Positions 1 through 52,465 of a stretch of DNA of 64,000 bases are shown piece after piece. Below the pieces are notes generated by a model that saw only the letters and a list, made by a program, of their open reading frames with translations, searched no databases and had not been told where the DNA came from. Every line of letters starts with the position of its first letter. The stretch's first letter is position 1. The stretch is from Escherichia coli O127:H6 str. E2348/69 (GTDB lineage: Bacteria; Pseudomonadota; Gammaproteobacteria; Enterobacterales; Enterobacteriaceae). The stretch lies in the NCBI RefSeq assembly GCF_000026545.1, contig NC_011601.1; one strand, written 5' to 3'. Made by a program: the position numbers and the translations under genes.

Positions 1-1170
<1,170 letters not shown>

Positions 1171-7495: not shown

Positions 7496-8533
7496 ATGTT
7501 TTCCGCATTGCGCCACCGTACCGCTGCCCTGGCGCTCGGCGTATGCTTTATTCTCCCCGTACACGCCTCGTCACCTAAACCTGGCGATTTTGCTAATACC
7601 CAGGCACGACATATTGCTACTTTCTTTCCGGGACGCATGACCGGAACTCCTGCAGAAATGTTATCTGCCGATTATATTCGCCAACAGTTTCAGCAAATGG
7701 GTTATCGCAGTGATATTCGGACATTTAATAGTCGGTATATTTATACCGCCCGCGATAATCGCAAGAGCTGGCATAACGTGACGGGAAGTACGGTGATTGC
7801 CGCTCATGAAGGCAAAGCGCCGCAGCAGATCATCATTATGGCGCATCTGGATACTTACGCCCCGCTGAGCGATGCTGACGCCGATGCCAATCTCGGCGGG
7901 CTAACGTTACAAGGAATGGATGATAACGCCGCAGGTTTAGGTGTCATGCTGGAACTGGCTGAACGCCTGAAAAATACGCCTACCGAGTATGGTATTCGAT
8001 TTGTGGCGACCAGCGGCGAAGAGGAAGGAAAATTAGGCGCTGAGAATTTACTCAAGCGGATGAGTGACACCGAAAAGAAAAATACGCTGCTGGTGATTAA
8101 TCTCGATAACTTAATTGTTGGCGATAAGCTGTATTTCAACAGTGGCGTAAAAACACCTGAAGCAGTAAGGAAATTAACGCGCGACCGGGCGCTGGCAATT
8201 GCCCGCAGCCATGGAATTGCCGCCACCACAAATCCAGGTTTGAATAAAAACTATCCGAAAGGCACCGGGTGTTGTAATGACGCAGAAATATTCGACAAAG
8301 CCGGTATTGCTGTACTTTCGGTGGAAGCGACTAACTGGAATCTTGGCAATAAGGATGGTTATCAGCAACGCGCAAAAACAGCCGCATTCCCTGCAGGAAA
8401 TAGCTGGCATGACGTAAGACTGGATAATCAACAGCATATTGATAAGGCACTTCCTGGAAGAATAGAACGCCGCTGCCGTGATGTTATGCGGATAATGCTA
8501 CCGCTGGTGAAGGAGCTGGCGAAGGCATCTTAA
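7496..8533 (+). CDS. iap: alkaline phosphatase isozyme conversion aminopeptidase (M28 family)
   Basis: 345-aa ORF with a signal peptide (AALALGVCFILPVHA) and M28 metal-ligand region (HLDT...DDNAAG...GEEEG). Divergent from cysD as in K-12. Confidence 0.93.
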   Translation: MFSALRHRTAALALGVCFILPVHASSPKPGDFANTQARHIATFFPGRMTGTPAEMLSADYIRQQFQQMGYRSDIRTFNSRYIYTARDNRKSWHNVTGSTVIAAHEGKAPQQIIIMAHLDTYAPLSDADADANLGGLTLQGMDDNAAGLGVMLELAERLKNTPTEYGIRFVATSGEEEGKLGAENLLKRMSDTEKKNTLLVINLDNLIVGDKLYFNSGVKTPEAVRKLTRDRALAIARSHGIAATTNPGLNKNYPKGTGCCNDAEIFDKAGIAVLSVEATNWNLGNKDGYQQRAKTAAFPAGNSWHDVRLDNQQHIDKALPGRIERRCRDVMRIMLPLVKELAKAS

Positions 8534-8593
8534 TGGGTTTGAAATGATTACTCCCTTGCCTGCAGGAAATCAATGCCACCAGAAACAGAGTAT

Positions 8594-8657
8594 AAAAAAG
8601 GGTGCAGGAGACCAAACCATCACAATTCAGTACGCGGGGTTTTACCCCGCGTGGTGG
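8594..8657 (-). other. hok mRNA 3' UTR: stem-loop plus putative fbi (fold-back) element ending in a U-run
   Basis: Minus strand after the hok stop reads CCACCACGCGGGGTAAAACCCCGCGTAC...GGTCTCCTGCACCCTTTTTT. There is a hairpin CGCGGGG/CCCCGCG (8633-8651). The 3' segment GGUCUCCUGCACCC can pair with the proposed 5' end GGGUGCUUGAGGCU at 10053-10040 (6 bp + 2-nt bulge + 6 bp, including G-U pairs). Confidence 0.55.
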
Positions 8658-8810
8658 CTACTTCTTCGATTCGTAAGCGAGAACTGCCTTAAACTCCATA
8701 CCACGTTCTCTGATACTCAACTCACACAACGAGTCGCCTACCATCAACGTGAATCCCAGTACTGTACAACACAGTACGATGATTGCCACAAGGGCATATT
8801 TTGTCAGCAT
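8658..8810 (-). CDS. Hok/Gef-family type I toxin (50 aa); coding frame intact but separated from its own SD, leader and promoter by the IS
   Basis: My own translation of the minus strand is [50 protein letters not shown]. It has an N-terminal TM helix, the conserved SLCE cysteine motif and a C-terminal AYES-K tail as in Hok of plasmid R1, and closely resembles K-12 HokE as I recall it. It falls below the 60-aa cutoff of the ORF track. Confidence 0.85.
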
Positions 8811-8813
8811 GTC

Positions 8814-9909
8814 TGTGTAAGTTCACAGAGATATTGCAATTGCCTCCGGATAAGTAAGGGGAGATTGCACTATGCAAATGCAGCATCTGATGGTTGGCTA
8901 TCCTAAGTACTACCAAACGGCCGATTATGCGTTGAGGCTTTCAGTGATGGCTGATATAGCAACAATGAGAATGAAGGCTCTGCACTTCTGGGATAAACAC
9001 GGTATTTCTGCAGCTTCTGAAGCCTTTGGCGTGTCCTGCCGCACGCTTTACTGGTGGCGTCAGTTACTGAACAAGGAAGGACCTGAGGGGCTAATCCCGC
9101 ACAGTAAGGCACCTCTGGTGCGACGAAAAAAACACTGGCATCCCGATGTGCTGAAAGAGATTCGACGCCTCAGGACAGAGCTGCCGAACCTCGGTAAAGA
9201 GCAGATTTTTGTTCGCCTGAAGCCCTGGTGCGAACAGCGCTATCTGGCCTGTCCGAGTGTTTCCACCATCGGCAGAATGATCGCTGCCGCACATGATAAA
9301 ATGCGGATGATACCTGTGCGTCTGGGATCGCGGGGGAAGGCACTGCTTGTCAAAAAGCGGTCTGCCAAACCCCGCAGGCCAAAGCACTACCGCCCGGTAA
9401 AGACAGGTGAGCTCATTGGGATGGACGCCATTGAGCTCAGAATGGGCGAACTGCGTCGCTATGTCATCACCATGATCGACGAATGCAGCAATTACGCGCT
9501 GGCGCTGGCTGTGCCGTCACTCAACAGTGATATCGTCAATCACTTCTTCAGCCGCGCAGCCCGGTTGTTCCCGGTCGGTATCAGCCAGATAATCACAGAT
9601 AACGGAAAAGAGTTCCTGGGAAACTTCGACAAAACGCTGCAGGAAGCCGCTATCAAACACCTCTGGACCTATCCCTACACGCCAAAAATGAACGCTATCT
9701 GTGAACGTTTTAACCGGACGTTAAGAGAGCAGTTTATTGAATTTAATGAGATTTTACTCTTTGAAGATCTGGCGCTATTTAACCAGAAGCTGGCGGAATA
9801 TCTGGTGCTGTATAACAGCAAAAGACCCCACAAGGCGCTCGCACTAATGACGCCCGTGGAATATATTTTAAAAGAGAATAAAAATTGCAATATGTGGTGG
9901 ACCCATACA
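8814..9909 (+). mobile_element. ~1.1 kb insertion sequence, single-ORF DDE (rve) transposase, IS481-like (IS3 superfamily)
   Basis: Imperfect terminal inverted repeats: left TGTGTAAGTTCACAGAGATATTGCAATT, and reverse complement of the right end TGTATGGGTCCACCACATATTGCAATT (TGT...ACA ends, about 20 of 28 matches, one indel). Flanked by a 5-bp direct repeat ATGTC (8809-8813 and 9910-9914). Confidence 0.8.
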
Positions 9910-10146
9910 ATGTCTTGCCTCCTTGCAAAGAAGAGACTAACATCCGAATTGCTTAGGTTCGAACGTAGGCCTCAGGTTGATAGAAATATCGCCTGGGGCT
10001 TTTGTCCATCTGGAACCTCGCGAATGCTTAACGCCAGACAGCCTCAAGCACCCAACGCCATTCTATACCTGTTAATTTTCCCTGCGATGTTCACCTTTAA
10101 ATGCCGGAATGCTGCTCGCAAAATAAAAACGCCCCATCATTTCTGA
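8872..10146 (+). CDS. IS transposase (HTH + rve/DDE integrase core); the ORF runs through the right IR, and the last ~79 codons are read-through into flanking DNA
   Basis: 424-aa ORF with SD AAGGGGAG 9 nt upstream. It has an N-terminal HTH region (GVSCRTLYWWRQ) and a DDE triad context (IGMDAIE ... ITDNGKEF ... YTPKMNAICERFNRTLREQF). No stop codon occurs before the IS end at 9909. Confidence 0.8.
   Translation: MQMQHLMVGYPKYYQTADYALRLSVMADIATMRMKALHFWDKHGISAASEAFGVSCRTLYWWRQLLNKEGPEGLIPHSKAPLVRRKKHWHPDVLKEIRRLRTELPNLGKEQIFVRLKPWCEQRYLACPSVSTIGRMIAAAHDKMRMIPVRLGSRGKALLVKKRSAKPRRPKHYRPVKTGELIGMDAIELRMGELRRYVITMIDECSNYALALAVPSLNSDIVNHFFSRAARLFPVGISQIITDNGKEFLGNFDKTLQEAAIKHLWTYPYTPKMNAICERFNRTLREQFIEFNEILLFEDLALFNQKLAEYLVLYNSKRPHKALALMTPVEYILKENKNCNMWWTHTMSCLLAKKRLTSELLRFERRPQVDRNIAWGFCPSGTSRMLNARQPQAPNAILYLLIFPAMFTFKCRNAARKIKTPHHF
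9915..10065 (-). promoter_or_regulatory. orphaned hok promoter and leader (tac 5' end, small mok-like leader ORFs, Sok target, hok SD)
   Basis: Minus strand reads TAGAAT (-10, 10065-10060), then 6 nt, then GGGTGCTTGAGGCTGTCTGG (compare the R1 hok 5' end GGCGCTTGAGGCTTTCTG as I recall it) ... CTTTGCAAGGAGGCAAGACAT. Joining across one copy of the ATGTC duplication restores AAGGAGGCAAGACATGCTGACA, that is SD plus 6 nt plus the hok ATG. Confidence 0.65.
9950..10004 (+). ncRNA. candidate Sok-like antisense RNA (~55-65 nt)
   Basis: Plus-strand promoter with -35 TTGCCT (9915-9920), 17-nt spacer and -10 TAACAT (9938-9943). Terminator hairpin GCCUCAGG/CCUGGGGC (9969-9999) followed by UUUU (10000-10003). 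The RNA is fully antisense to the hok leader. The ends are predicted, not measured. Confidence 0.5.
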
Positions 10147-10157
10147 CAGAGGCGTTT
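10127..10157 (-). terminator. intrinsic terminator downstream of cysH
   Basis: Minus strand reads AAACGCC-17 nt loop-GGCGTTT followed by TTATTTT, 18 nt after the cysH stop. Confidence 0.55.
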
Positions 10158-10174
10158 AATTTATCCGGCAATAT

Positions 10175-10909
10175 TTACCCTTCGTGTAATCCACATTCCC
10201 TTTTTAAGCCAAAGAAACGCGTTTCTTCTTCCGCCATGCCGGGTTCCCATTTACGGGTTGTATGGGTATCGCCCACCGATAAATATCCTTCATCCCATAA
10301 TGGGTGATATTTCAGGCCATGTTTTTGCAGGTACTGATAAATAGTTCGGTTATCCCAGTCGATAATCGGCAGCACTTTAAATACGCCACGCTGAATTGCC
10401 AGCACCGGTAAATTGGCGCGACTGCCGGATTGTTCACGGCGCAGGCCAGCAAACCAGGTTTGCGCATTCAGTTCTTTCAGCGCCCGGTTCATCGGTTCGA
10501 CTTTGTTGATGTCATTGTACTTTTCAATGCCTTCAACGCCCTGCTCCCACAGTTTGCCGTAGCGTGCTTCCTGCCAGGCGGCGCTTTCGGTAGCACGATA
10601 CACTTTCAGGTTGAGCTTGAGTTTGTCCGTTAACTCGTCAATAAAGCGGTAGGTTTCCGGGAACAGATAGCCGGTATCGGTGAGGATCACTGGAATATCC
10701 GGGCGAATCTGATTCACCAGATGCAGACTCACCGCCGCCTGAATGCCAAAGCTGGAAGAAAGTACATATTCACCGGGCAGATTATCCAGCGCCCAGGCTA
10801 CGCGGCCTTCAGCGTCCAGTTTTTCCAGTTGGGCGTTAGTTTCCGCCAGCGCCAGAATCCGGTCTACCTTTGGCAGTTCGTTCAGGGCGTTTAGATCGAG
10901 TTTGGACAT
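10175..10909 (-). CDS. cysH: phosphoadenosine phosphosulfate (PAPS) reductase
   Basis: Track ORF 10175..11062. The conserved start [21 protein letters not shown] is Met52 of that ORF, giving 244 aa. It has the C-terminal ECGLH motif. The upstream extension runs through a REP element and is not coding. Confidence 0.95.
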
Positions 10910-25969: not shown

Positions 25970-26088
25970 GTGAGATAAACAGTGCCGGGTAGATGATTAA
26001 TCCCGGCATATTCACGTTTCCACCACAAAATACCGGGTAACCACTGCTGAATATTGTTCTCTCCTGAGTAGCGTTTATGCTTTAATTG

Positions 26089-26102
26089 CTAAACCGATTT
26101 AA
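26089..26102. promoter_or_regulatory. ScrR-type (LacI-family) operator upstream of scrK
   Basis: CTAAACCGATTTAA. Its reverse complement differs at 1 of 14 positions from the 27105 copy. It lies 30 nt upstream of the scrK ATG. Confidence 0.6.
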
Positions 26103-26133
26103 TTAGTTTAGCAATTAGTATATTGGAGCCTTT

Positions 26134-27054
26134 ATGAGCGCAAGAGTATGGGTACTCGGTGATGCGGTTGTTGATTTATTACCCGAAAGCCAGGGGAGAC
26201 TACTACAGTGTCCTGGCGGGGCGCCTGCTAATGTTGCAGTCGGTATCGCAAGGCTGGGGGGGAAAAGTGCCTTTATTGGCAAAGTTGGCGATGATCCTTT
26301 CGGTCGCTTTATGTATCAGACACTGAGTACAGAAAATGTTGATACACGTTATATGTCTCTTGATCCTCAACAACGCACCTCAATTGTGGCTGTAGGACTT
26401 GATGAGCAAGGAGAAAGAAACTTTACCTTTATGGTACGCCCAAGTGCCGATCTTTTTTTACAACCTGATGACCTTCCTACATTTGGGCCGGGTGAATGGC
26501 TCCATCTTTGTTCCATTGCGCTCAGTGCAGAACCTTCCCGAAGTACCGCATTTCTGGCTATGGAGAAAATACGTCAGGCTGGCGGAAACATCAGTTTTGA
26601 TCCCAATATCCGCAGCGATCTCTGGCAGAGTGAAGCGCTATTAAGAAAATACCTTGATCGCGCGCTTTCGCTGGCGAATATCGCTAAATTGTCCGAAGAA
26701 GAGTTGCTATTCATCAGTGGCGAAAGCCAGGTTCAGCAAGGCGCATATTCATTAGTACAACGTTATTCGTTGACTTTATTGCTTATCACACAAGGAAAAA
26801 ATGGCGTACTTGTGTATTTTCAGGGGCAGTTTATCCACTATCCCGCCAAACCTGTTTCTGTCGTCGATACGACCGGGGCAGGAGATGCTTTTGTCGCTGG
26901 ATTACTTGCAGGTCTGGCTGATTCTGGAATACCAACAAATACCAGACAGCTTGAACGAATCATTGCACAAGCTCAGATTTGTGGTGCTCTGGCGACCACG
27001 GCTAAAGGCGCGATGACCGCCTTACCCCGACAACACGATCTCCCTTCACAATAG
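26134..27054 (+). CDS. scrK: fructokinase (PfkB family)
   Basis: 306-aa ORF with WVLGDAVVDLLPE...LLQCPGGAPANVA and DTTGAGDAF motifs. Clearly homologous to, but diverged from, the Klebsiella/pUR400 ScrK I remember. Confidence 0.9.
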   Translation: MSARVWVLGDAVVDLLPESQGRLLQCPGGAPANVAVGIARLGGKSAFIGKVGDDPFGRFMYQTLSTENVDTRYMSLDPQQRTSIVAVGLDEQGERNFTFMVRPSADLFLQPDDLPTFGPGEWLHLCSIALSAEPSRSTAFLAMEKIRQAGGNISFDPNIRSDLWQSEALLRKYLDRALSLANIAKLSEEELLFISGESQVQQGAYSLVQRYSLTLLLITQGKNGVLVYFQGQFIHYPAKPVSVVDTTGAGDAFVAGLLAGLADSGIPTNTRQLERIIAQAQICGALATTAKGAMTALPRQHDLPSQ

Positions 27055-27104
27055 TGATCCTGCTGTTGTATCTGTAACCCGATTTGTCGTGCCTGTCACA
27101 TTTA

Positions 27105-27118
27105 CTAAATCGGTTTAG
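27105..27118. promoter_or_regulatory. ScrR-type operator, distal copy upstream of scrY
   Basis: CTAAATCGGTTTAG, a near-perfect 14-bp palindrome. Confidence 0.6.
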
Positions 27119-27163
27119 CGAAAATAATTGCTCTGGCTAAAAAGTCAGCTTTATTATCAACAC

Positions 27164-27177
27164 CTAAACCGGTTTAG
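27164..27177. promoter_or_regulatory. ScrR-type operator overlapping the scrY promoter
   Basis: CTAAACCGGTTTAG, a perfect 14-bp palindrome. A perfect TATAAT hexamer lies at 27193-27198. Confidence 0.65.
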
Positions 27178-27197
27178 CATTTTAGCAATTTTTATAA

Positions 27198-28739
<1,542 letters not shown>

Positions 28740-28799
28740 TACCAGACAGCCTCACGGATGTGAGGCTTTTACTGAAATAACAATGAATTAGAGGGTTAT

Positions 28800-30170
28800 A
28801 TGGATTTCGATAAAATCGCCCAATCGTTGCTTCCTTTATTAGGTGGTAAGGAGAACATCGCCAGTGCAGCACATTGCGCCACTCGCCTACGGCTGGTACT
28901 GGTTGACGACACACTTGCCGATCAACATGCCATTGGCCAGATTGATGGAGTGAAAGGTTGTTTTCGTAATTCAGGGCAAATGCAAATCATCTTTGGCACC
29001 GGCGTGGTTAATAAAGTCTATGCTGCCTTTATTCAGGTTGCAGGTATTAGCGAATCCAGTAAAGCAGATACCGCTCGACTCGCCGCTCAAAAACTCAATC
29101 CTTTTCAGCGAATAGCACGGCTACTTTCTAATATTTTTGTCCCCATCATTCCAGCCATTGTTGCTTCTGGTTTATTAATGGGGCTCCTGGGAATGGTGAA
29201 AACATATGGCTGGGTGAATGCCGATAATGCGATTTATATCCTGCTGGATATGTGCAGTTCAGCCGCATTTATTATTCTCCCCATCCTTATTGGCTTTACT
29301 GCTGCTCGTGAATTTGGTGGAAATCCTTATCTTGGCGCGACATTAGGAGGGATTCTGACTCACCCGGCACTCACAAATGCCTGGGGCGTTGCTGCGGGAT
29401 TTCAGACAATGAACTTCTTCGGTTTTGAAATCGCCATGATTGGCTATCAGGGAACGGTTTTCCCCGTGCTTCTGGCAGTATGGTTTATGAGCATAGTGGA
29501 AAAACAGTTACGCAGGTTTATCCCTGATGCTCTGGATCTCATTCTGACGCCATTTCTGACTGTCGTCATTTCTGGCTTTATCGCTCTTTTGATTATTGGT
29601 CCGGCAGGACGAGCGTTAGGTGACGGTATCTCTTTCGTTCTCAGCACGCTGATTGCACACGCAGGCTGGTTAGCAGGGTTGTTATTCGGCGGGCTATATT
29701 CAGCGATTGTTATTACGGGTATTCATCATAGCTTCCACGCAATTGAAGCAGGACTTTTAGGTAACCCTGCAATCGGTGTTAATTTCCTGCTGCCTATTTG
29801 GGCAATGGCAAACGTTGCGCAAGGAGGTGCATGTCTGGCGGTATGGTTTAAAACCAAAGATACAAAAATTAAAGCAATCACCCTACCCTCGGCCTTTTCC
29901 GCAATGTTAGGGATTACTGAAGCCGCTATTTTTGGTATCAACCTTCGTTTTGTTAAACCTTTTATTGCGGCCTTAATTGGTGGCGCTGCCGGCGGTGCCT
30001 GGGTTGTCTCTGTTCACGTTTATATGACTGCCGTTGGTCTGACCGCAATACCCGGCATGGCAATCGTTCAGCCAACATCGTTGGTTAATTATATTATTGG
30101 AATGGTGATTGCTTTCGCTGTCGCTTTTAGCCTCTCTTTATTACTCAAATACAAAACGGACGAGGAGTAA
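28800..30170 (+). CDS. scrA: PTS sucrose-specific EIIBC component
   Basis: 456-aa ORF with EIIB active-site context AAHCATRLRL, followed by a polytopic EIIC domain. Confidence 0.92.
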   Translation: MDFDKIAQSLLPLLGGKENIASAAHCATRLRLVLVDDTLADQHAIGQIDGVKGCFRNSGQMQIIFGTGVVNKVYAAFIQVAGISESSKADTARLAAQKLNPFQRIARLLSNIFVPIIPAIVASGLLMGLLGMVKTYGWVNADNAIYILLDMCSSAAFIILPILIGFTAAREFGGNPYLGATLGGILTHPALTNAWGVAAGFQTMNFFGFEIAMIGYQGTVFPVLLAVWFMSIVEKQLRRFIPDALDLILTPFLTVVISGFIALLIIGPAGRALGDGISFVLSTLIAHAGWLAGLLFGGLYSAIVITGIHHSFHAIEAGLLGNPAIGVNFLLPIWAMANVAQGGACLAVWFKTKDTKIKAITLPSAFSAMLGITEAAIFGINLRFVKPFIAALIGGAAGGAWVVSVHVYMTAVGLTAIPGMAIVQPTSLVNYIIGMVIAFAVAFSLSLLLKYKTDEE

Positions 30171-31579
30171 TGTCGATGCCTTCACAAATGCCCGCGATTT
30201 TACAGGCAGTGATGAAAGGTCAGTCCAAAGCACTGGCAGATGCCCACTATCCTTGTTGGCATCTCGCTCCAGTCACCGGACTAATGAACGATCCAAATGG
30301 CTTTTGTTGGTCTGGAGGCCGCTATCATCTGTTTTATCAATGGAATCCACTGGCTTGTGATCATAAGTACAAATGTTGGGGGCACTGGAGTTCGACGGAT
30401 TTATTGCACTGGCAGCATGAACCATTAGCGCTAATGCCCGATAAAGAGTACGACCGTAATGGTTGTTACTCAGGAAGCGCGGTTAATAATCAGGGCGTTC
30501 TCACACTTTGCTATACCGGTAATGTTAAGTTTGATGATGGCAGCAGAACGGCATGGCAATGCCTGGCCACCGAAAATAACCAGGGCGGGTTTGATAAACT
30601 AGGCCCTGTCATACCGTTACCTGATGGTTACACCGGACATGTTCGTGATCCAAAAGTCTGGAAGCACAACAGCCAATGGTACATGGTGCTTGGCGCGCAA
30701 GATAAAGAGAAACGGGGGAAAGTGCTGCTGTATTCCTCTGTCGATCTCTATACCTGGTCTTTTCATGGAGAAATTGCTGGTAACGGTCTGAATGAAATAG
30801 ATAACGCAGGATACATGTGGGAATGTCCTGATCTTTTCGCCCTTGATGGTGAATACATTCTCCTCTGTTGCCCCCAGGGAATGGTGCGCGAACATGAGCG
30901 CTATCTGAATACTTATCCCTGCGCCTGGCTACATGGACAGTTTGATTACGAGACAGGCAAATTTACGCATGGCGCTTTCTCAGAGCTGGATGCGGGATTT
31001 GAATTCTATGCACCACAGACGATGGAAGCCCCGGACGGGCGACGATTGCTGGTCGGCTGGATGGGGGTTCCTGATGGCGAAGAGATGTTGCAGCCAACCA
31101 GAAAGCATCATTGGCAGCATCAAATGACCTGTTTTCGCGAACTCTCATTCCAGAAGGGAAAATTGTTTCAGATGCCAATCAGGGAACTCGCGCAACTGCG
31201 TGAAGCTGAACACTTCTGGCAAGGAAAAGCGGATCATGCGCCGCATGTCGAAATTGAACGCCTGGAAATGGACATCATTCCGTCGGGTGAGCTGTATCTG
31301 AATTTTGGCAATGCGCTGGCACTGCATCTTAATGACGATGGTATTCAACTACAGAGGAGAAGCCTTGCAGGGCAAGAGAAACTAACTCGTTACTGGCGAG
31401 GAAGCGTAACGTCACTGAAGATTCTCTGTGACAGTTCCAGCGTAGAGATATTCATCAATAATGGTGAAGGTGTAATGAGTAATCGTTATTTTCCCCATCA
31501 TCCAGCTTCGCTGATATTACAGGGTGAGTCTGACGTCACGTTACGCTACTGGTCGCTACGCGCCTGCATGGTAGAATGA
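30170..31579 (+). CDS. scrB: sucrose-6-phosphate hydrolase (GH32)
   Basis: 469-aa ORF with GH32 catalytic motifs MNDPNG, RDPKV and WECPD. The ATG overlaps the scrA stop. Confidence 0.92.
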
Positions 31580-31604
31580 GGGTTTTGAATTACGGATCCT
31601 CGTC

Positions 31605-32612
31605 GTGAGAAAAACCAAACGCGTTACTATTAAAGACATTGCTGAACTGGCGGGAGTGTCGAAAGCAACCGCCAGTCTGGTTCTCAATGGTCGTGGCAAA
31701 GAGTTACGTGTTGCGCAGGAAACGCGTGAGCGTGTGCTGAGTATTGCCCAACAGCAGCATTATCAGCCCAGCATTCATGCCCGCTCATTACGGGACAACC
31801 GCAGTCATACCATTGGTCTCGTCGTTCCTGAAATCACTAACTACGGATTTGCAGTATTTTCCCATGAACTGGAAACATTGTGTCGGGAAGCGGGCGTCCA
31901 GCTCCTCATATCCTGTACTGATGAAAATCCTTCACAGGAAACAATGGTGGTGAACAATATGATTGCCCGCCAGGTTGATGGGTTAATCGTCGCATCCAGT
32001 ATGCTGCATGATAATGACTATCAAAAACTTAGCGAGCAATTACCTGTTGTGTTGTTCGATCGCCACATGAACGGCAGTACATTGCCATTGGTCATTACTG
32101 ACTCTGTTTCTCCCACCGCCGCTCTGGTGGCAGATATTGCACGGAGTCACCCGGATGAATTCTATTTTCTGGGCGGACAACCCCGTTTGTCACCGACTCG
32201 CGATCGACTGGAAGGATTTACACAAGGCTTGCAGCAAGCCGGAGTAACGCTACAACCTGAATGGATTATTCACGGTAATTATCATCCGAGCTCAGGCTAT
32301 GAAATGTTTGCCGCGCTATGCGCTCGTTTAGGACGTCCCCCTAAAGCCTTATTCACTGCCGCTTGTGGATTACTGGAAGGCGTTCTGCGCTATATGAGCC
32401 AATATAATTTACTCGACAGTAAAATACACCTGGCGAGTTTTGATGATCATTACTTGTATGATTCACTTTCGGTAAGAATCGACACAATACAACAGGATAA
32501 TCGCCAACTTGCTTTTCACTGCTTTGAACTTATTTCGCAACTGATTGAAGGTGAAACGCCATCCCCATTACAGCGTTATCTTCCTGCCAGTCTACAAAAA
32601 CGCTACCGATAA
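31605..32612 (+). CDS. scrR: LacI-family sucrose operon repressor
   Basis: 335-aa ORF with a GTG start and N-terminal [26 protein letters not shown]. Confidence 0.9.
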
Positions 32613-32629
32613 TCCCGTCACTATCTTGC

Positions 32630-32659
32630 ATCGCCCCTGTAAAACGGGGCGATTATTTT
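32630..32659 (+). terminator. intrinsic terminator after scrR
   Basis: ATCGCCCC-tgtaaaac-GGGGCGAT followed by TATTTT. Confidence 0.65.
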
Positions 32660-32696
32660 CATCCTGAACGTTAAATATTAATGATGAATAATCAAA

Positions 32697-52063: not shown

Positions 52064-52107
52064 AAAGCAACCTCAATAAGAAAAACTGCCGCGAAGAATA
52101 GCAGGAA

Positions 52108-52465
52108 TAAAAAAAGGGAGCACTGTATTCACAGTGCTCCCGGTTCGTTTCGCAGCATTCCGGCTACTTTTATTGCTCCCTGCTCATCCTTGACAACTTT
52201 TCCTCTGGCCTTACGGCCAATCGTTCATCCTGAACTATTGCTTCCTGCTCACACCACCCCGATGTGATACTTCATCCTGAAGTGTTCCTGGCCTTCCTGA
52301 CCCACCGAATCATCCTGACCGGTTCTCATTCTCCATCCTGGAGGTGTCCTTTAACGCGTCCTGCGTCATCCTCTTCGCTTCATCCAGAAGCCTTTCCCTG
52401 AAACACCATCCTGGTGTGTCCTTCAGAAGTGTCATCATCCTGATGTTCACTTCGTTGTCTGACTC
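52108..52465 (-). ncRNA. csrB: CsrB, CsrA-sequestering small RNA
   Basis: The minus strand begins GAGTCAGACAACGAAGTGAACATCAGGATGATGACAC and ends with the terminator GGGAGCACTG...CAGTGCTCCC followed by seven T. I count about 18-19 GGA motifs, many as CAGGATG. It matches my memory of K-12 csrB; the ends are approximate. Confidence 0.92.

Follow-up and report, generated by a model that had tools for sequence, protein, structure and literature searches.

At the CRISPR-I locus of Escherichia coli, between iap and cysH, Almendros et al. 2014 (mBio 5:e00767-13, PMC3903273), in work building on Diez-Villasenor et al. 2010, described an arrangement B, which has no cas genes and keeps hok/sok, and an arrangement C, which is B plus an uncharacterised insertion sequence, "ISu", located where the conserved cysH-proximal intergenic segment ends on the side away from cysH. 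In the same study, hok/sok was found in all strains except those with cas-E2, the K-12-type arrangement was inferred to be derived, and an ISu hot spot was described; hok/sokX has also been reported from the iap-cysH region of uropathogenic strains (PMC12736100). Here we analysed a 64,000-nucleotide stretch of DNA (hereafter the window), which over this locus is 100% identical to enteropathogenic E. coli E2348/69, a strain that we take to belong to phylogroup B2. By matching to the published description, we assign the locus to arrangement C, with no structural difference: as in B and C, iap and cysH flank a short interval that contains neither cas-E genes nor an array and retains hok/sok. This analysis adds base-level coordinates (Table 1), the 6-bp target-site duplication, the identification of ISu as an ISKpn28-like element of the IS481 family, and a 48-bp filler sequence.

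Two further groups of described elements are relevant to this locus. The hok/sok system of plasmid R1 and the chromosomal hok loci of K-12 are type I toxin-antitoxin systems, reportedly characterised by the Gerdes laboratory (by Pedersen and Gerdes in 1999, among others), and K-12 hokA, hokC and hokE carry IS150 or IS186 inserted just downstream of their reading frames. The locus in the window resembles these systems in encoding a Hok/Gef toxin of about 50 amino acids behind a long folded leader, with an antisense Sok whose constitutive promoter overlaps the point where hok translation starts and with a predicted 5'-3' fold-back, and it resembles the K-12 chromosomal copies in being inactivated by an IS. 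The element responsible resembles ISKpn28, an IS481-family element of Klebsiella pneumoniae, which is likewise about 1.1 kb long, has identical termini, the same internal repeats and an rve-type DDE transposase, and also adjoins a Hok/Gef gene; the E. coli element is, however, a distinct variant.

Table 1. Features of the iap-cysH interval and of the ygcE-queE site, in window coordinates.
Feature	Coordinates	Strand	Remarks
iap	7496..8533	+	345-aa ORF, Pfam Peptidase_M28; annotated in E2348/69 as iap (alkaline phosphatase isozyme conversion aminopeptidase)
11 nt after iap stop	8534..8544	.	Common to K-12 and O157 by alignment; blastn against the O157 interval aligns 8474-8544
48-bp filler	8545..8592	.	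Specific to the cas-less arrangement
hok mRNA 3' UTR	8593..8657	-	Conserved hairpin 8633-8651; 3'-terminal fold-back element ...CUCCUGCACCC, then U-run
hok toxin ORF	8658..8810	-	50 aa, intact, start codon kept; Pfam HOK_GEF PF01848, 39.1 bits (cut-off 22)
Target-site duplication, left copy	8809..8814	.	ATGTCT; holds A and T of hok ATG, on the other strand
IS481-family element, ISKpn28-like (ISu)	8815..9909	+	1,095 bp; ends GTGTAAG...CCCATACA (termini also given as GTGTAAG...CATACA)
Transposase ORF	8872..10146	+	No stop inside the IS; runs 78 codons into sok/hok-leader DNA; rve/rve_3/HTH
Target-site duplication, right copy	9910..9915	.	ATGTCT
Sok promoter, intact	9915..9943	+	-35 TTGCCT 9915-9920, 17-nt spacer, -10 TAACAT 9938-9943
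hok mRNA 5' leader	9916..10053	-	5' fold-back partner, Sok target, Shine-Dalgarno GGAGG; separated from the hok ORF by the IS
Sok antisense RNA	9951..10009	+	K-12 sokX equivalent; the 59-nt sokX of NC_000913.3 aligns with 4 mismatches
cysH intrinsic terminator	10132..10151	-	cysJIH operon
cysH (PAPS reductase)	10175..10909	-	Pfam PAPS_reduct; annotation in matching genomes
scrK-scrY-scrA-scrB-scrR	25975..32694	+	Sucrose regulon, fills the ygcE-queE interval; K-12 has CRISPR-II arrays there

The interval between the ends of iap (8533) and cysH (10175) is 1,641 bp, in agreement with the 1.64 kb of the initial annotation, and contains the hok toxin ORF, the 1,095-bp IS481-family element and the hok leader/Sok region. 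A weak Rfam match to ctRNA_p42d at 10118-10159 was rejected, being really the cysH terminator. The initial annotation had reported that no type I-E repeat is present at positions 8534-10174, and more sensitive comparisons confirm this. The 29-nt I-E repeat consensus (CGGTTTATCCCCGCTGGCGCGGGGAACAC type) had no match with up to three mismatches in the whole 64-kb window, in which no CRISPR-like spaced repeats were found either, and Smith-Waterman alignments of the junction, the hok part, the sok part and the IS to typical and degenerate terminal repeats scored no higher than shuffled sequences. The lowest shuffle count in the latter test (26/500) came from the hairpin at 8633-8651, which had been noted before as a single hairpin in the hok 3' UTR; it is indeed real, folds 7 nt past the hok stop codon and is kept in cas-bearing strains. 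Searching for cas remnants by tblastn with nine Cas proteins (the K-12 Cas proteins and both cas3 variants, including O157 Cas3) returned only matches with E >= 0.16, and the sole blastn match (word size 7) of the whole K-12 cysH-iap interval joined K-12 positions 1-272, on the sokX side, to window positions 10174-9905. The window thus contains no I-E repeat array (repeats of ~29 nt, spacers of ~32 nt), and the iap-cysH interval no genes or fragments of cas3, cse1, cse2, cas7, cas5, cas6e, cas1 or cas2.

At the second site, K-12 homology breaks off 5 bp past ygcE and is picked up again about 2 bp short of the queE stop codon, and no CRISPR array is present between the two genes, as had been noted; the interval is occupied by scrKYABR, whose products match NCBIfam models for fructokinase, sucrose PTS IIBC, sucrose-6-P hydrolase, fructose/sucrose repressor and porin. 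Both K-12 I-E sites within the window are therefore without CRISPR and cas; the I-F site at clpA-infA is located outside the window. The presence of scr genes at this site has been published (PMC11251922, PMC12736100), and the absence of the cas operon, which was rightly suspected not to be novel, is described by Almendros et al. 2014 (PMC3903273).

The initial annotation had further taken the toxin-antitoxin locus to be a replacement for CRISPR-Cas, that is, a module of a different kind inserted in place of the cassette, with one defence or selfish module exchanged for another in the same hot spot. Seen from the window alone, where hok/sok is the only non-IS content between iap and cysH, or from K-12, the usual reference, which has no hok gene there, such a replacement might seem natural. 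It is refuted, however, by the arrangement cas3-hok-cysH, which is present in O157:H7 EC4115 and O103:H2 with an identical Hok protein (WP_000956458.1), hok/sok being found alongside cas3 in these and ~3,000 other complete genomes. The hok segment is present in 4,214 of 5,426 complete genomes, in contrast to the cas-less junction, which is present in only 1,120. Moreover, the Hok protein of the window is 100% identical to those of O157, MS 16-3 (an uninterrupted iap-hok-cysH locus) and GDSC2227PM, its ORF differs from that of O157 by six synonymous and no non-synonymous substitutions, and the flanking homology with cas-bearing O157 begins exactly at 8593 and is continuous over 8593-8814 and 9910-10235, broken by the IS alone. 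K-12 (cas-E2) has itself lost the hok ORF and 3' end and retains only sokX, the sok half of the same locus; its arrangement is derived according to PMC3903273, so that taking K-12 for the ancestral state, as had been implied, is not supported, and the published presence of hok/sok in every strain outside the cas-E2 group likewise speaks against replacement, which we consider extremely improbable. Because hok/sok coexists with cas-E1 genes, it is a remainder beside a missing cassette rather than an incomer in its place. The interval is thus very probably the published CRISPR-I arrangement C of E2348/69, in which the cas cassette is absent, hok/sok is a resident and hok has been severed by an IS.

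The junction downstream of iap bears on how the cassette came to be absent. Homology to CRISPR-bearing strains stops at 8544, 11 nt after the iap stop codon, in agreement with the few bases given for K-12 in the initial annotation. The adjacent 48-bp filler matches nothing in the O157 and K-12 intervals (word size 7) and occurs as a single copy in 1,127 of 5,426 genomes, with no second copy in any E. coli genome; the full cas-less junction, found in 1,120 of the 5,426 complete genomes, is uniform, and the one divergent (90.7%) filler that we examined also lies in an iap-hok-cysH layout. A 22-mer from the filler was absent among 185,579 species-representative genomes. The possibility that the junction is a degenerate I-E repeat remnant was rejected, given that it aligned with typical and terminal repeats no better than shuffled sequences did. 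Since nothing corresponding to the filler was found in the cas-bearing strains examined, deletion alone, starting from arrangement A as it exists today, does not fully account for the junction. The cas-less order iap-48 bp-hok/sok-cysH could instead be ancestral, with the I-E cassette having been inserted between iap and hok in other lineages and displacing the 48 bp; the restriction of the 48 bp to cas-less genomes, with nothing corresponding in cas-E1 or cas-E2 intervals, the lack of a repeat remnant and the uniformity of the junction across 1,120 genomes would all fit this order of events. We nevertheless consider it unlikely. I-E CRISPR-Cas adjoins iap in Salmonella and other Escherichia species, which suggests that the cassette predates E. 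coli, and the filler may descend from a variant of the array that is now extinct, as a former spacer or a piece of its leader. Furthermore, deletion from arrangement A is the most parsimonious course according to Almendros 2014 (PMC3903273). In the reading that we prefer, a cassette of ~9 kb, comprising the CRISPR2.1 array and cas2...cas3 and located between iap and hok/sok in cas-E1 strains, is absent here, a unique stretch of 48 bp connects iap with the 3' end of the hok transcription unit, and hok/sok (hokX/sokX) is a resident type I toxin-antitoxin neighbour of cysH and not a CRISPR substitute.

Three parts of a type I toxin-antitoxin locus are recognisable, namely an ORF for a small membrane toxin of the Hok/Gef family, a structured leader, and a Sok RNA with its own promoter. 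The NCBIfam HokA and Hok models match the toxin below their own cut-offs, and RefSeq annotates it as Hok/Gef. The leader/Sok region (9904-10053) matches Rfam RF01794 with 104.6 bits (cut-off 59), the model lying in hok sense and ending at the hok AUG, and a probable -10 element of the hok leader, TAGAAT, can be read at 10060-10065 on the minus strand. The Sok promoter, which starts 5 bp from the IS end, was assigned on the basis of the annotated 5' end of K-12 sokX, which maps to 9951, 7 nt past the -10; by our own count it agrees with the consensus at 8 of 12 positions, and was hence not called by a consensus scanner with a threshold of 9/12. In the minimum-free-energy fold of a reconstructed 361-nt hok mRNA, nucleotides 1-14 are predicted to pair with nucleotides 340-353 in a duplex of -23.7 kcal/mol, that is, in the 5'-3' fold-back (tac/fbi) whose partners are separated by the IS in the window. 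The leader of the reconstructed mRNA contains only two short ORFs, of 18 and 12 codons, the second of which ends overlapping the hok AUG; unlike in the R1 and K-12 systems, a mok-type leader ORF could not be clearly identified. When uninterrupted, hok/sok looks functional from its sequence, to judge by the Pfam and Rfam matches above cut-off, the substitutions relative to O157 (six synonymous, no non-synonymous), the predicted fold-back and the position of the sokX start. The substitution pattern also lends indirect support to a Hok that would kill cells on loss of Sok.

In the window, the IS is inserted between the hok Shine-Dalgarno sequence and ATG, unlike in K-12 hokA, hokC and hokE, where the elements lie downstream of the frames. 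The hok ORF is thereby placed 1.1 kb from its promoter, leader, ribosome-binding site and 5' fold-back partner, and no ribosome-binding site can be read within 5-13 nt of the hok ATG in the interrupted locus; the Sok promoter, the Sok RNA and the hok leader are all unbroken. An IS knock-out of hok, as initially proposed, thus stands, with an intact ORF severed from its leader. We infer that Hok is not translated and that what is left of the locus is an orphan antitoxin RNA resembling K-12 sokX, with Sok probably still made in E2348/69, although transcripts leaving the left end of the IS could reach hok. Precise excision of the IS would be expected to restore the hok/sok locus.

The IS name derives from a protein search, in which the transposase was 80% identical to proteins of the ISKpn28 family, and the internal repeats ATATTGCAATT/AATTGCAATAT are the same as those published for ISKpn28. 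The transposase matches Pfam rve and rve_3 and scores 221-222 bits with the NCBIfam IS481 model NF033577 (cut-off 224), the next family being IS3 with 98; in RefSeq the E. coli element has only the generic names "integrase core domain-containing protein" and "IS481 family transposase", the latter being the label of identical copies. The ~1-kb size, the terminal inverted repeats (TGT...ACA), the short duplications and the occurrence at multiple sites are those of IS481 elements. The left copy of the duplication was set by comparison with the right copy and an uninterrupted locus (L003). The element is mobile, as identical copies occur in other genomes with differing flanks and 6-bp duplications; perfect 6-bp duplications were found at 19 distinct sites, and a single genome can carry the element at up to 38 places; roughly 1,200 E. 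coli genomes have it. In other copies, the transposase ORF is closed 6 nt beyond the IS, by the TGA within a TTGA -35 hexamer.

Insertions of this element into hok recur. At the same nucleotide, it is present in 12 genomes of the cas-less form and 21 of the cas-bearing form. The IS is identical at 1095/1095 positions while the flanks are 92.9-98.2% identical; these insertions are, on the sequence evidence, recurrent and independent. The same IS group was also found in plasmid hok, prophage hok, hokB and Klebsiella hok. Hok ORFs were flagged with a small HMM built for this purpose only, from the window Hok and manually entered Hok seeds (strong matches, with E values of 1e-8 to 1e-30). The right IS end lies exactly 5 bp upstream of a sigma-70-type -35 element at 19 of 23 hok sites and at 12 of 50 others, against a background of 0.034% (P ~3e-31); the duplication ends on the first T of TTGNNN-16..18-TANNNT, and the orientation is fixed. 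In total, the motif stands at offset 5 from the right end in 31 of 73 distinct sites and in none of the left flanks, and all seven non-hok sites with a verified duplication fit the motif. Among these sites, promoter activity is documented only for Sok, through the sokX annotation. About 40 of the 73 right flanks have no motif, and such sites, including those named below, were kept in the denominators. Several motif-less sites without a matching duplication resemble secondary rearrangements, such as the common plasmid copy L185 and a copy upstream of yegH with a decayed duplication.

We tentatively propose that IS481 elements of the ISKpn28 group, including ISu, may be promoter-homing, inserting in a single orientation such that 5 bp separate the right end from a downstream sigma-70 -35 hexamer, taking the transposase stop codon from the TTGA of the -35 when present, and having Sok promoters as their commonest natural target. 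At the locus in the window, the 1,095-bp element transposed into AGACAT (hok sense), the 6-bp link between the Shine-Dalgarno sequence and the ATG. On the opposite strand, this point precedes the -35 hexamer of the Sok promoter by 5 bp. The element would have landed there because its group homes to the upstream edge of sigma-70-type promoters and favours Sok promoters, as the 73 sites suggest. Insertion 5 bp upstream of the -35 would explain the recurrence of the IS at Sok promoters, and with these as the commonest target, hok toxin genes would be severed repeatedly from their leaders on chromosomes, plasmids and prophages. The same accumulation in hok could also arise by chance and selection without any target choice, if insertions that silence the toxin are tolerated or favoured; the one safe way of breaking such a locus is to silence hok and spare sok, and other IS types (IS421, IS150) occur in or near it as well. 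This explanation appears improbable to us, given the base-pair placement at TTGNNN-16..18-TANNNT in a fixed orientation, the excess over background at hok and non-hok sites alike, the complete agreement of the verified non-hok sites and the lack of any fitting left flank, and selection on hok would not explain non-hok sites such as that upstream of sthA.

Insertion upstream of sigma-A promoters has been described for TnGBS, ISLre2 and ISKra4 elements, which have Mutator-like DDE transposases (Guerillot et al. 2014, PMC3942029). The transposase in the window is of the retroviral-integrase-like rve/IS481 type, an unrelated superfamily, and does not have the Mutator-like DDE transposase with a promoter-targeting signature; ISu would therefore behave like these elements without being a member of them. 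The two also differ in distance to the promoter (5 bp here, 15-17 bp there), in hosts (Enterobacteria here, mainly Firmicutes there) and in the stop codon that the ISu transposase ORF borrows from its target. In the open-access literature searched, we found no paper stating the promoter-homing rule and nothing relevant on IS481 in connection with hok, the sok promoter, target specificity or E2348/69 IS lists; the papers found on ISKpn28 report mgrB disruption and co-location with FlmC, with no target rule.

To conclude, published work already covers the missing I-E system in strains of this kind, the survival of hok/sok, the variant with the IS and the scr genes found between ygcE and queE, and the insertion rule is the one lead that may be new. 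K-12 is a poor reference for the iap-cysH locus, and hok/sok is not to be read as a CRISPR substitute. Promoter homing, if true, would account for three observations: that an ISu hot spot recurs next to the cas-E genes in E. coli, that K-12 homology breaks at the same base, and that ISKpn28 has been reported on plasmids together with FlmC and anti-CRISPR genes. If confirmed, the rule would represent a second, unrelated transposase lineage homing to promoters, a recurring natural route to disarm type I toxin genes, and a mechanistic reason why this IS sits at the breakpoints where cas modules were lost or exchanged in E. coli.

The iap-cysH locus is 100% identical to that of E2348/69, an O127:H6 enteropathogenic E. 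coli strain that we take to belong to phylogroup B2. Between iap and cysH, it holds a hok/sok toxin–antitoxin locus interrupted by an ISKpn28-like insertion sequence (IS), as laid out in the table.

Features of the window, with coordinates and supporting evidence
Feature	Position	Strand	Evidence or remark
iap	7496-8533	+	ORF, Pfam
48-bp filler	8545-8592		no relative in the O157 interval
hairpin	8633-8651		7 nt past the hok stop codon
Hok/Gef ORF, 50 aa	8658-8810	-	Pfam
6-bp duplication ATGTCT, two copies	8809-8814, 9910-9915		flanks the IS
insertion sequence, 1,095 bp	8815-9909
transposase ORF	8872-10146		no stop codon within the IS
Sok -35 element TTGCCT	9915-9920
hok mRNA leader	9916-10053	-	Rfam RF01794, 104.6 bits
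K-12 sokX RNA, mapped	9951-10009	+
cysH terminator	10132-10151
cysH	10175-10909	-	ORF, Pfam
scrK, scrY, scrA, scrB, scrR	25975-32694		ygcE-queE interval
CsrB small RNA, full length	52106-52465	-	Rfam, 382 bits; expected in such a chromosomal region

The absence of type I-E CRISPR-Cas from this interval, which the initial annotation had read by eye, was upheld by every search. Across the entire window, no match to the I-E repeat was detected with up to three mismatches allowed, and no spaced direct repeats were found. When the parts of the interval were aligned locally, one by one, with typical and with degenerate terminal I-E repeats, none scored above shuffled sequences, and blastn (word size 7) of the complete K-12 cysH-iap interval against the window returned a sole match, namely its first 272 bp at 10174-9905. 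For remnants of cas genes, tblastn with the K-12 Cas proteins and O157 Cas3 gave a best E value of 0.16. The hairpin that had been singled out as the only repeat-like element is real and is also conserved in cas-bearing strains. The second K-12 site, between ygcE and queE, is array-free as well: K-12 homology ends 5 bp after ygcE and returns approximately 2 bp before the queE stop codon, and the 6.7 kb between these breakpoints consist of the scrKYABR sucrose regulon, located where K-12 has the CRISPR-II arrays, without an IS. The same feature is known from scr-positive B2 and F strains, and the presence of scr genes beside queE, in the position of CRISPR2.2, has already been published (PMC11251922).

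The CRISPR-less iap-cysH arrangement is already known, as had been supposed. Almendros et al. (2014, PMC3903273) described arrangement A (cas-E1 plus hok/sok, which they infer to be the oldest), arrangement B (the whole cassette absent), and arrangement C (B with an uncharacterised "ISu"), and proposed that the cas-E2 arrangement of K-12 arose by way of intermediates carrying an IS. Furthermore, in a 2025 survey of uropathogenic strains, hok and sokX adjoin cysH in 90% (PMC12736100).

The initial annotation had further proposed that the toxin–antitoxin locus replaced CRISPR-Cas, with K-12 as the ancestral reference, and here the comparisons point the other way. In the cas-bearing strain O157:H7 EC4115, the gene order is casA-cas3-hok-cysH, the arrangement in O103:H2 is the same, and the Hok accession of EC4115 is shared with MS 16-3, a cas-less strain with an uninterrupted iap-hok-cysH locus. 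Among 5,426 complete genomes, the hok segment is present in 4,214 and the cas-less iap-hok junction in 1,120; the same IS occupies the same site in 12 genomes of the cas-less form and in 21 where it adjoins cas3. This distribution, together with the cas3-hok-cysH order, shows hok/sok to be resident beside cysH, in most cases together with CRISPR-Cas, which it did not replace. K-12 retains the sok half alone, with homology stopping at the hok ATG and sokX annotated there, and is a poor ancestral reference for the interval. Overall, the initial observation stands in full, whereas the replacement reading and the K-12 ancestry do not.

Three blocks of the window can be aligned with the O157 interval: 8474-8544, covering the end of iap and 11 nt beyond it; 8593-8814, from the hok 3' end up to the ATG; and 9910-10235. 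Relative to the O157 arrangement, approximately 9 kb are gone, comprising the array, the genes from cas2 to cas3, and the accompanying spacer DNA, with the unrelated 48-bp filler in that position. In the published view, the cas-less arrangement arose by deletion; alternatively, it may be the ancestral state. Of the 1,127 E. coli genomes that carry the filler, all inspected examples are cas-less, and no relative of the filler was detectable in the O157 or K-12 intervals or in other genomes.

The Rfam alignment of the leader runs in the hok-sense direction and terminates at the hok AUG. Upon removal of the IS and one duplication copy, the reconstructed hok mRNA is 361 nt long and almost identical to its counterpart in MS 16-3, where the locus is uninterrupted, and in its predicted fold nt 1-14 pair with nt 340-353, as in the classic fold-back. 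A Sok -10 element, TAACAT, lies 7 nt upstream of the mapped sokX start. The Hok protein is 100% identical in E2348/69, O157:H7, and a divergent cas-less strain, even though hok differs between E2348/69 and O157 by six synonymous and no non-synonymous substitutions, which suggests that the toxin is under purifying selection in the species. The placement of the duplication on the hok strand (GGAGGCA-AGACAT-G) indicates that the IS splits the Shine-Dalgarno sequence from the hok ATG. The ORF is intact, start codon included, and now lies 1.1 kb from the promoter, leader, ribosome-binding site, and 5' fold-back partner, so that, in agreement with the proposed IS knock-out, Hok would presumably not be produced. 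The Sok promoter and RNA sequence are unbroken, and the locus is probably equivalent in function to an orphan Sok, like that of K-12.

The transposase contains HTH and rve domains, scores 221-222 bits against the NCBIfam IS481 model (cut-off 224), and is 80% identical to ISKpn28-family transposases; the IS also shares its termini and internal repeats with ISKpn28. It is present in 1,222 E. coli genomes, in up to 38 places per genome. At other sites, the transposase ORF stops at a TGA 6 nt past the IS, which at 18 of 73 sites belongs to a TTGA -35 hexamer; because the -35 element here is TTGCCT, the window copy extends 78 codons into the sok region. This overrun probably accounts for the RefSeq label "integrase core domain-containing protein" in place of transposase. 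More distant relatives in other Gammaproteobacteria are approximately 66-76% identical over the aligned 3' part, with the same 24-nt right terminus; these compared loci (L016-L018, L021, L022) derive from Candidatus Spongiihabitans and other gammaproteobacterial MAGs. Promoter-like motifs adjoin L016-L018 and L021; counted from the IS end, the offset is 4 or 5 for L016, L017, and L021. Distant relatives beside such motifs show approximately 66-68% identity over the aligned 3' part. This suggests a broader clade in which the end is conserved and the target rule may be shared as well. In a Streptomyces malaysiensis assembly, one contig of 566 bp matches the 3' half of the IS at 79% identity and has the exact 24-nt terminus; it could be a contaminant or a relative acquired by transfer.

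Members of this IS group are found just upstream of five different hok genes, 0-8 nt from the start codon and always in a single orientation: one is the cysH-linked hok (in cas-less and cas-bearing strains alike), another lies amid P2-like phage genes (ogr, com), a third is on a plasmid near repA, and the others are hokB and a Klebsiella hok. The IS copies of E2348/69 and O103:H2 are identical (1095/1095) while their flanks are 92.9-98.2% identical, which indicates independent recent insertions at one nucleotide. From publicly available genomes, metagenomes, and viral contigs, we collected 173 IS right ends, representing 73 distinct flanks, and scored them for a sigma-70-like motif (TTGNNN, 16-18 nt, TANNNT; background frequency 0.034%). 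At 31 of the 73 sites, the right end lies exactly 5 bp upstream of the -35 hexamer in a fixed orientation, with the last duplicated base being the first T of the motif (19/23 hok and 12/50 non-hok sites) and the motifs pointing away from the IS. The non-hok set departs from background with a binomial P of ~3e-31, each of the seven non-hok sites whose duplication was verified fits, and no motif was found on the left flanks. Judged by these flanks, the most frequent targets are Sok promoters, drawn from many different hok loci, and promoter-homing transposition of ISKpn28-like elements is a moderately promising proposal. The nearest parallel on record is provided by TnGBS/ISLre2/ISKra4 elements, which are unrelated and whose insertions fall 15-17 bp upstream of sigma-A promoters (PMC3942029), in contrast to the 5 bp from the -35 hexamer seen here. 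In a limited literature search, we found no paper stating an insertion rule for ISKpn28-like elements.

Such a rule would explain the ISu hot spot of Almendros et al. and the break in K-12 homology at the very base of IS insertion (9905-9916). On the K-12 side, ATACAC precedes ATGTCT and resembles the IS terminus CATACA, a weak 5-nt match that may be the footprint of the IS-bearing intermediate postulated by these authors. The rule would also explain the reported co-location of ISKpn28 and FlmC on plasmids: plasmid AcrIE9 anti-CRISPR genes often have FlmC and an ISKpn28 transposase in their vicinity, and the authors of that preprint suggest that ISKpn28 mobilises these genes (PMC12248084). Targeting of the flm locus, which is of the hok/sok type, by the IS would be a simpler explanation for this association than mobilisation.
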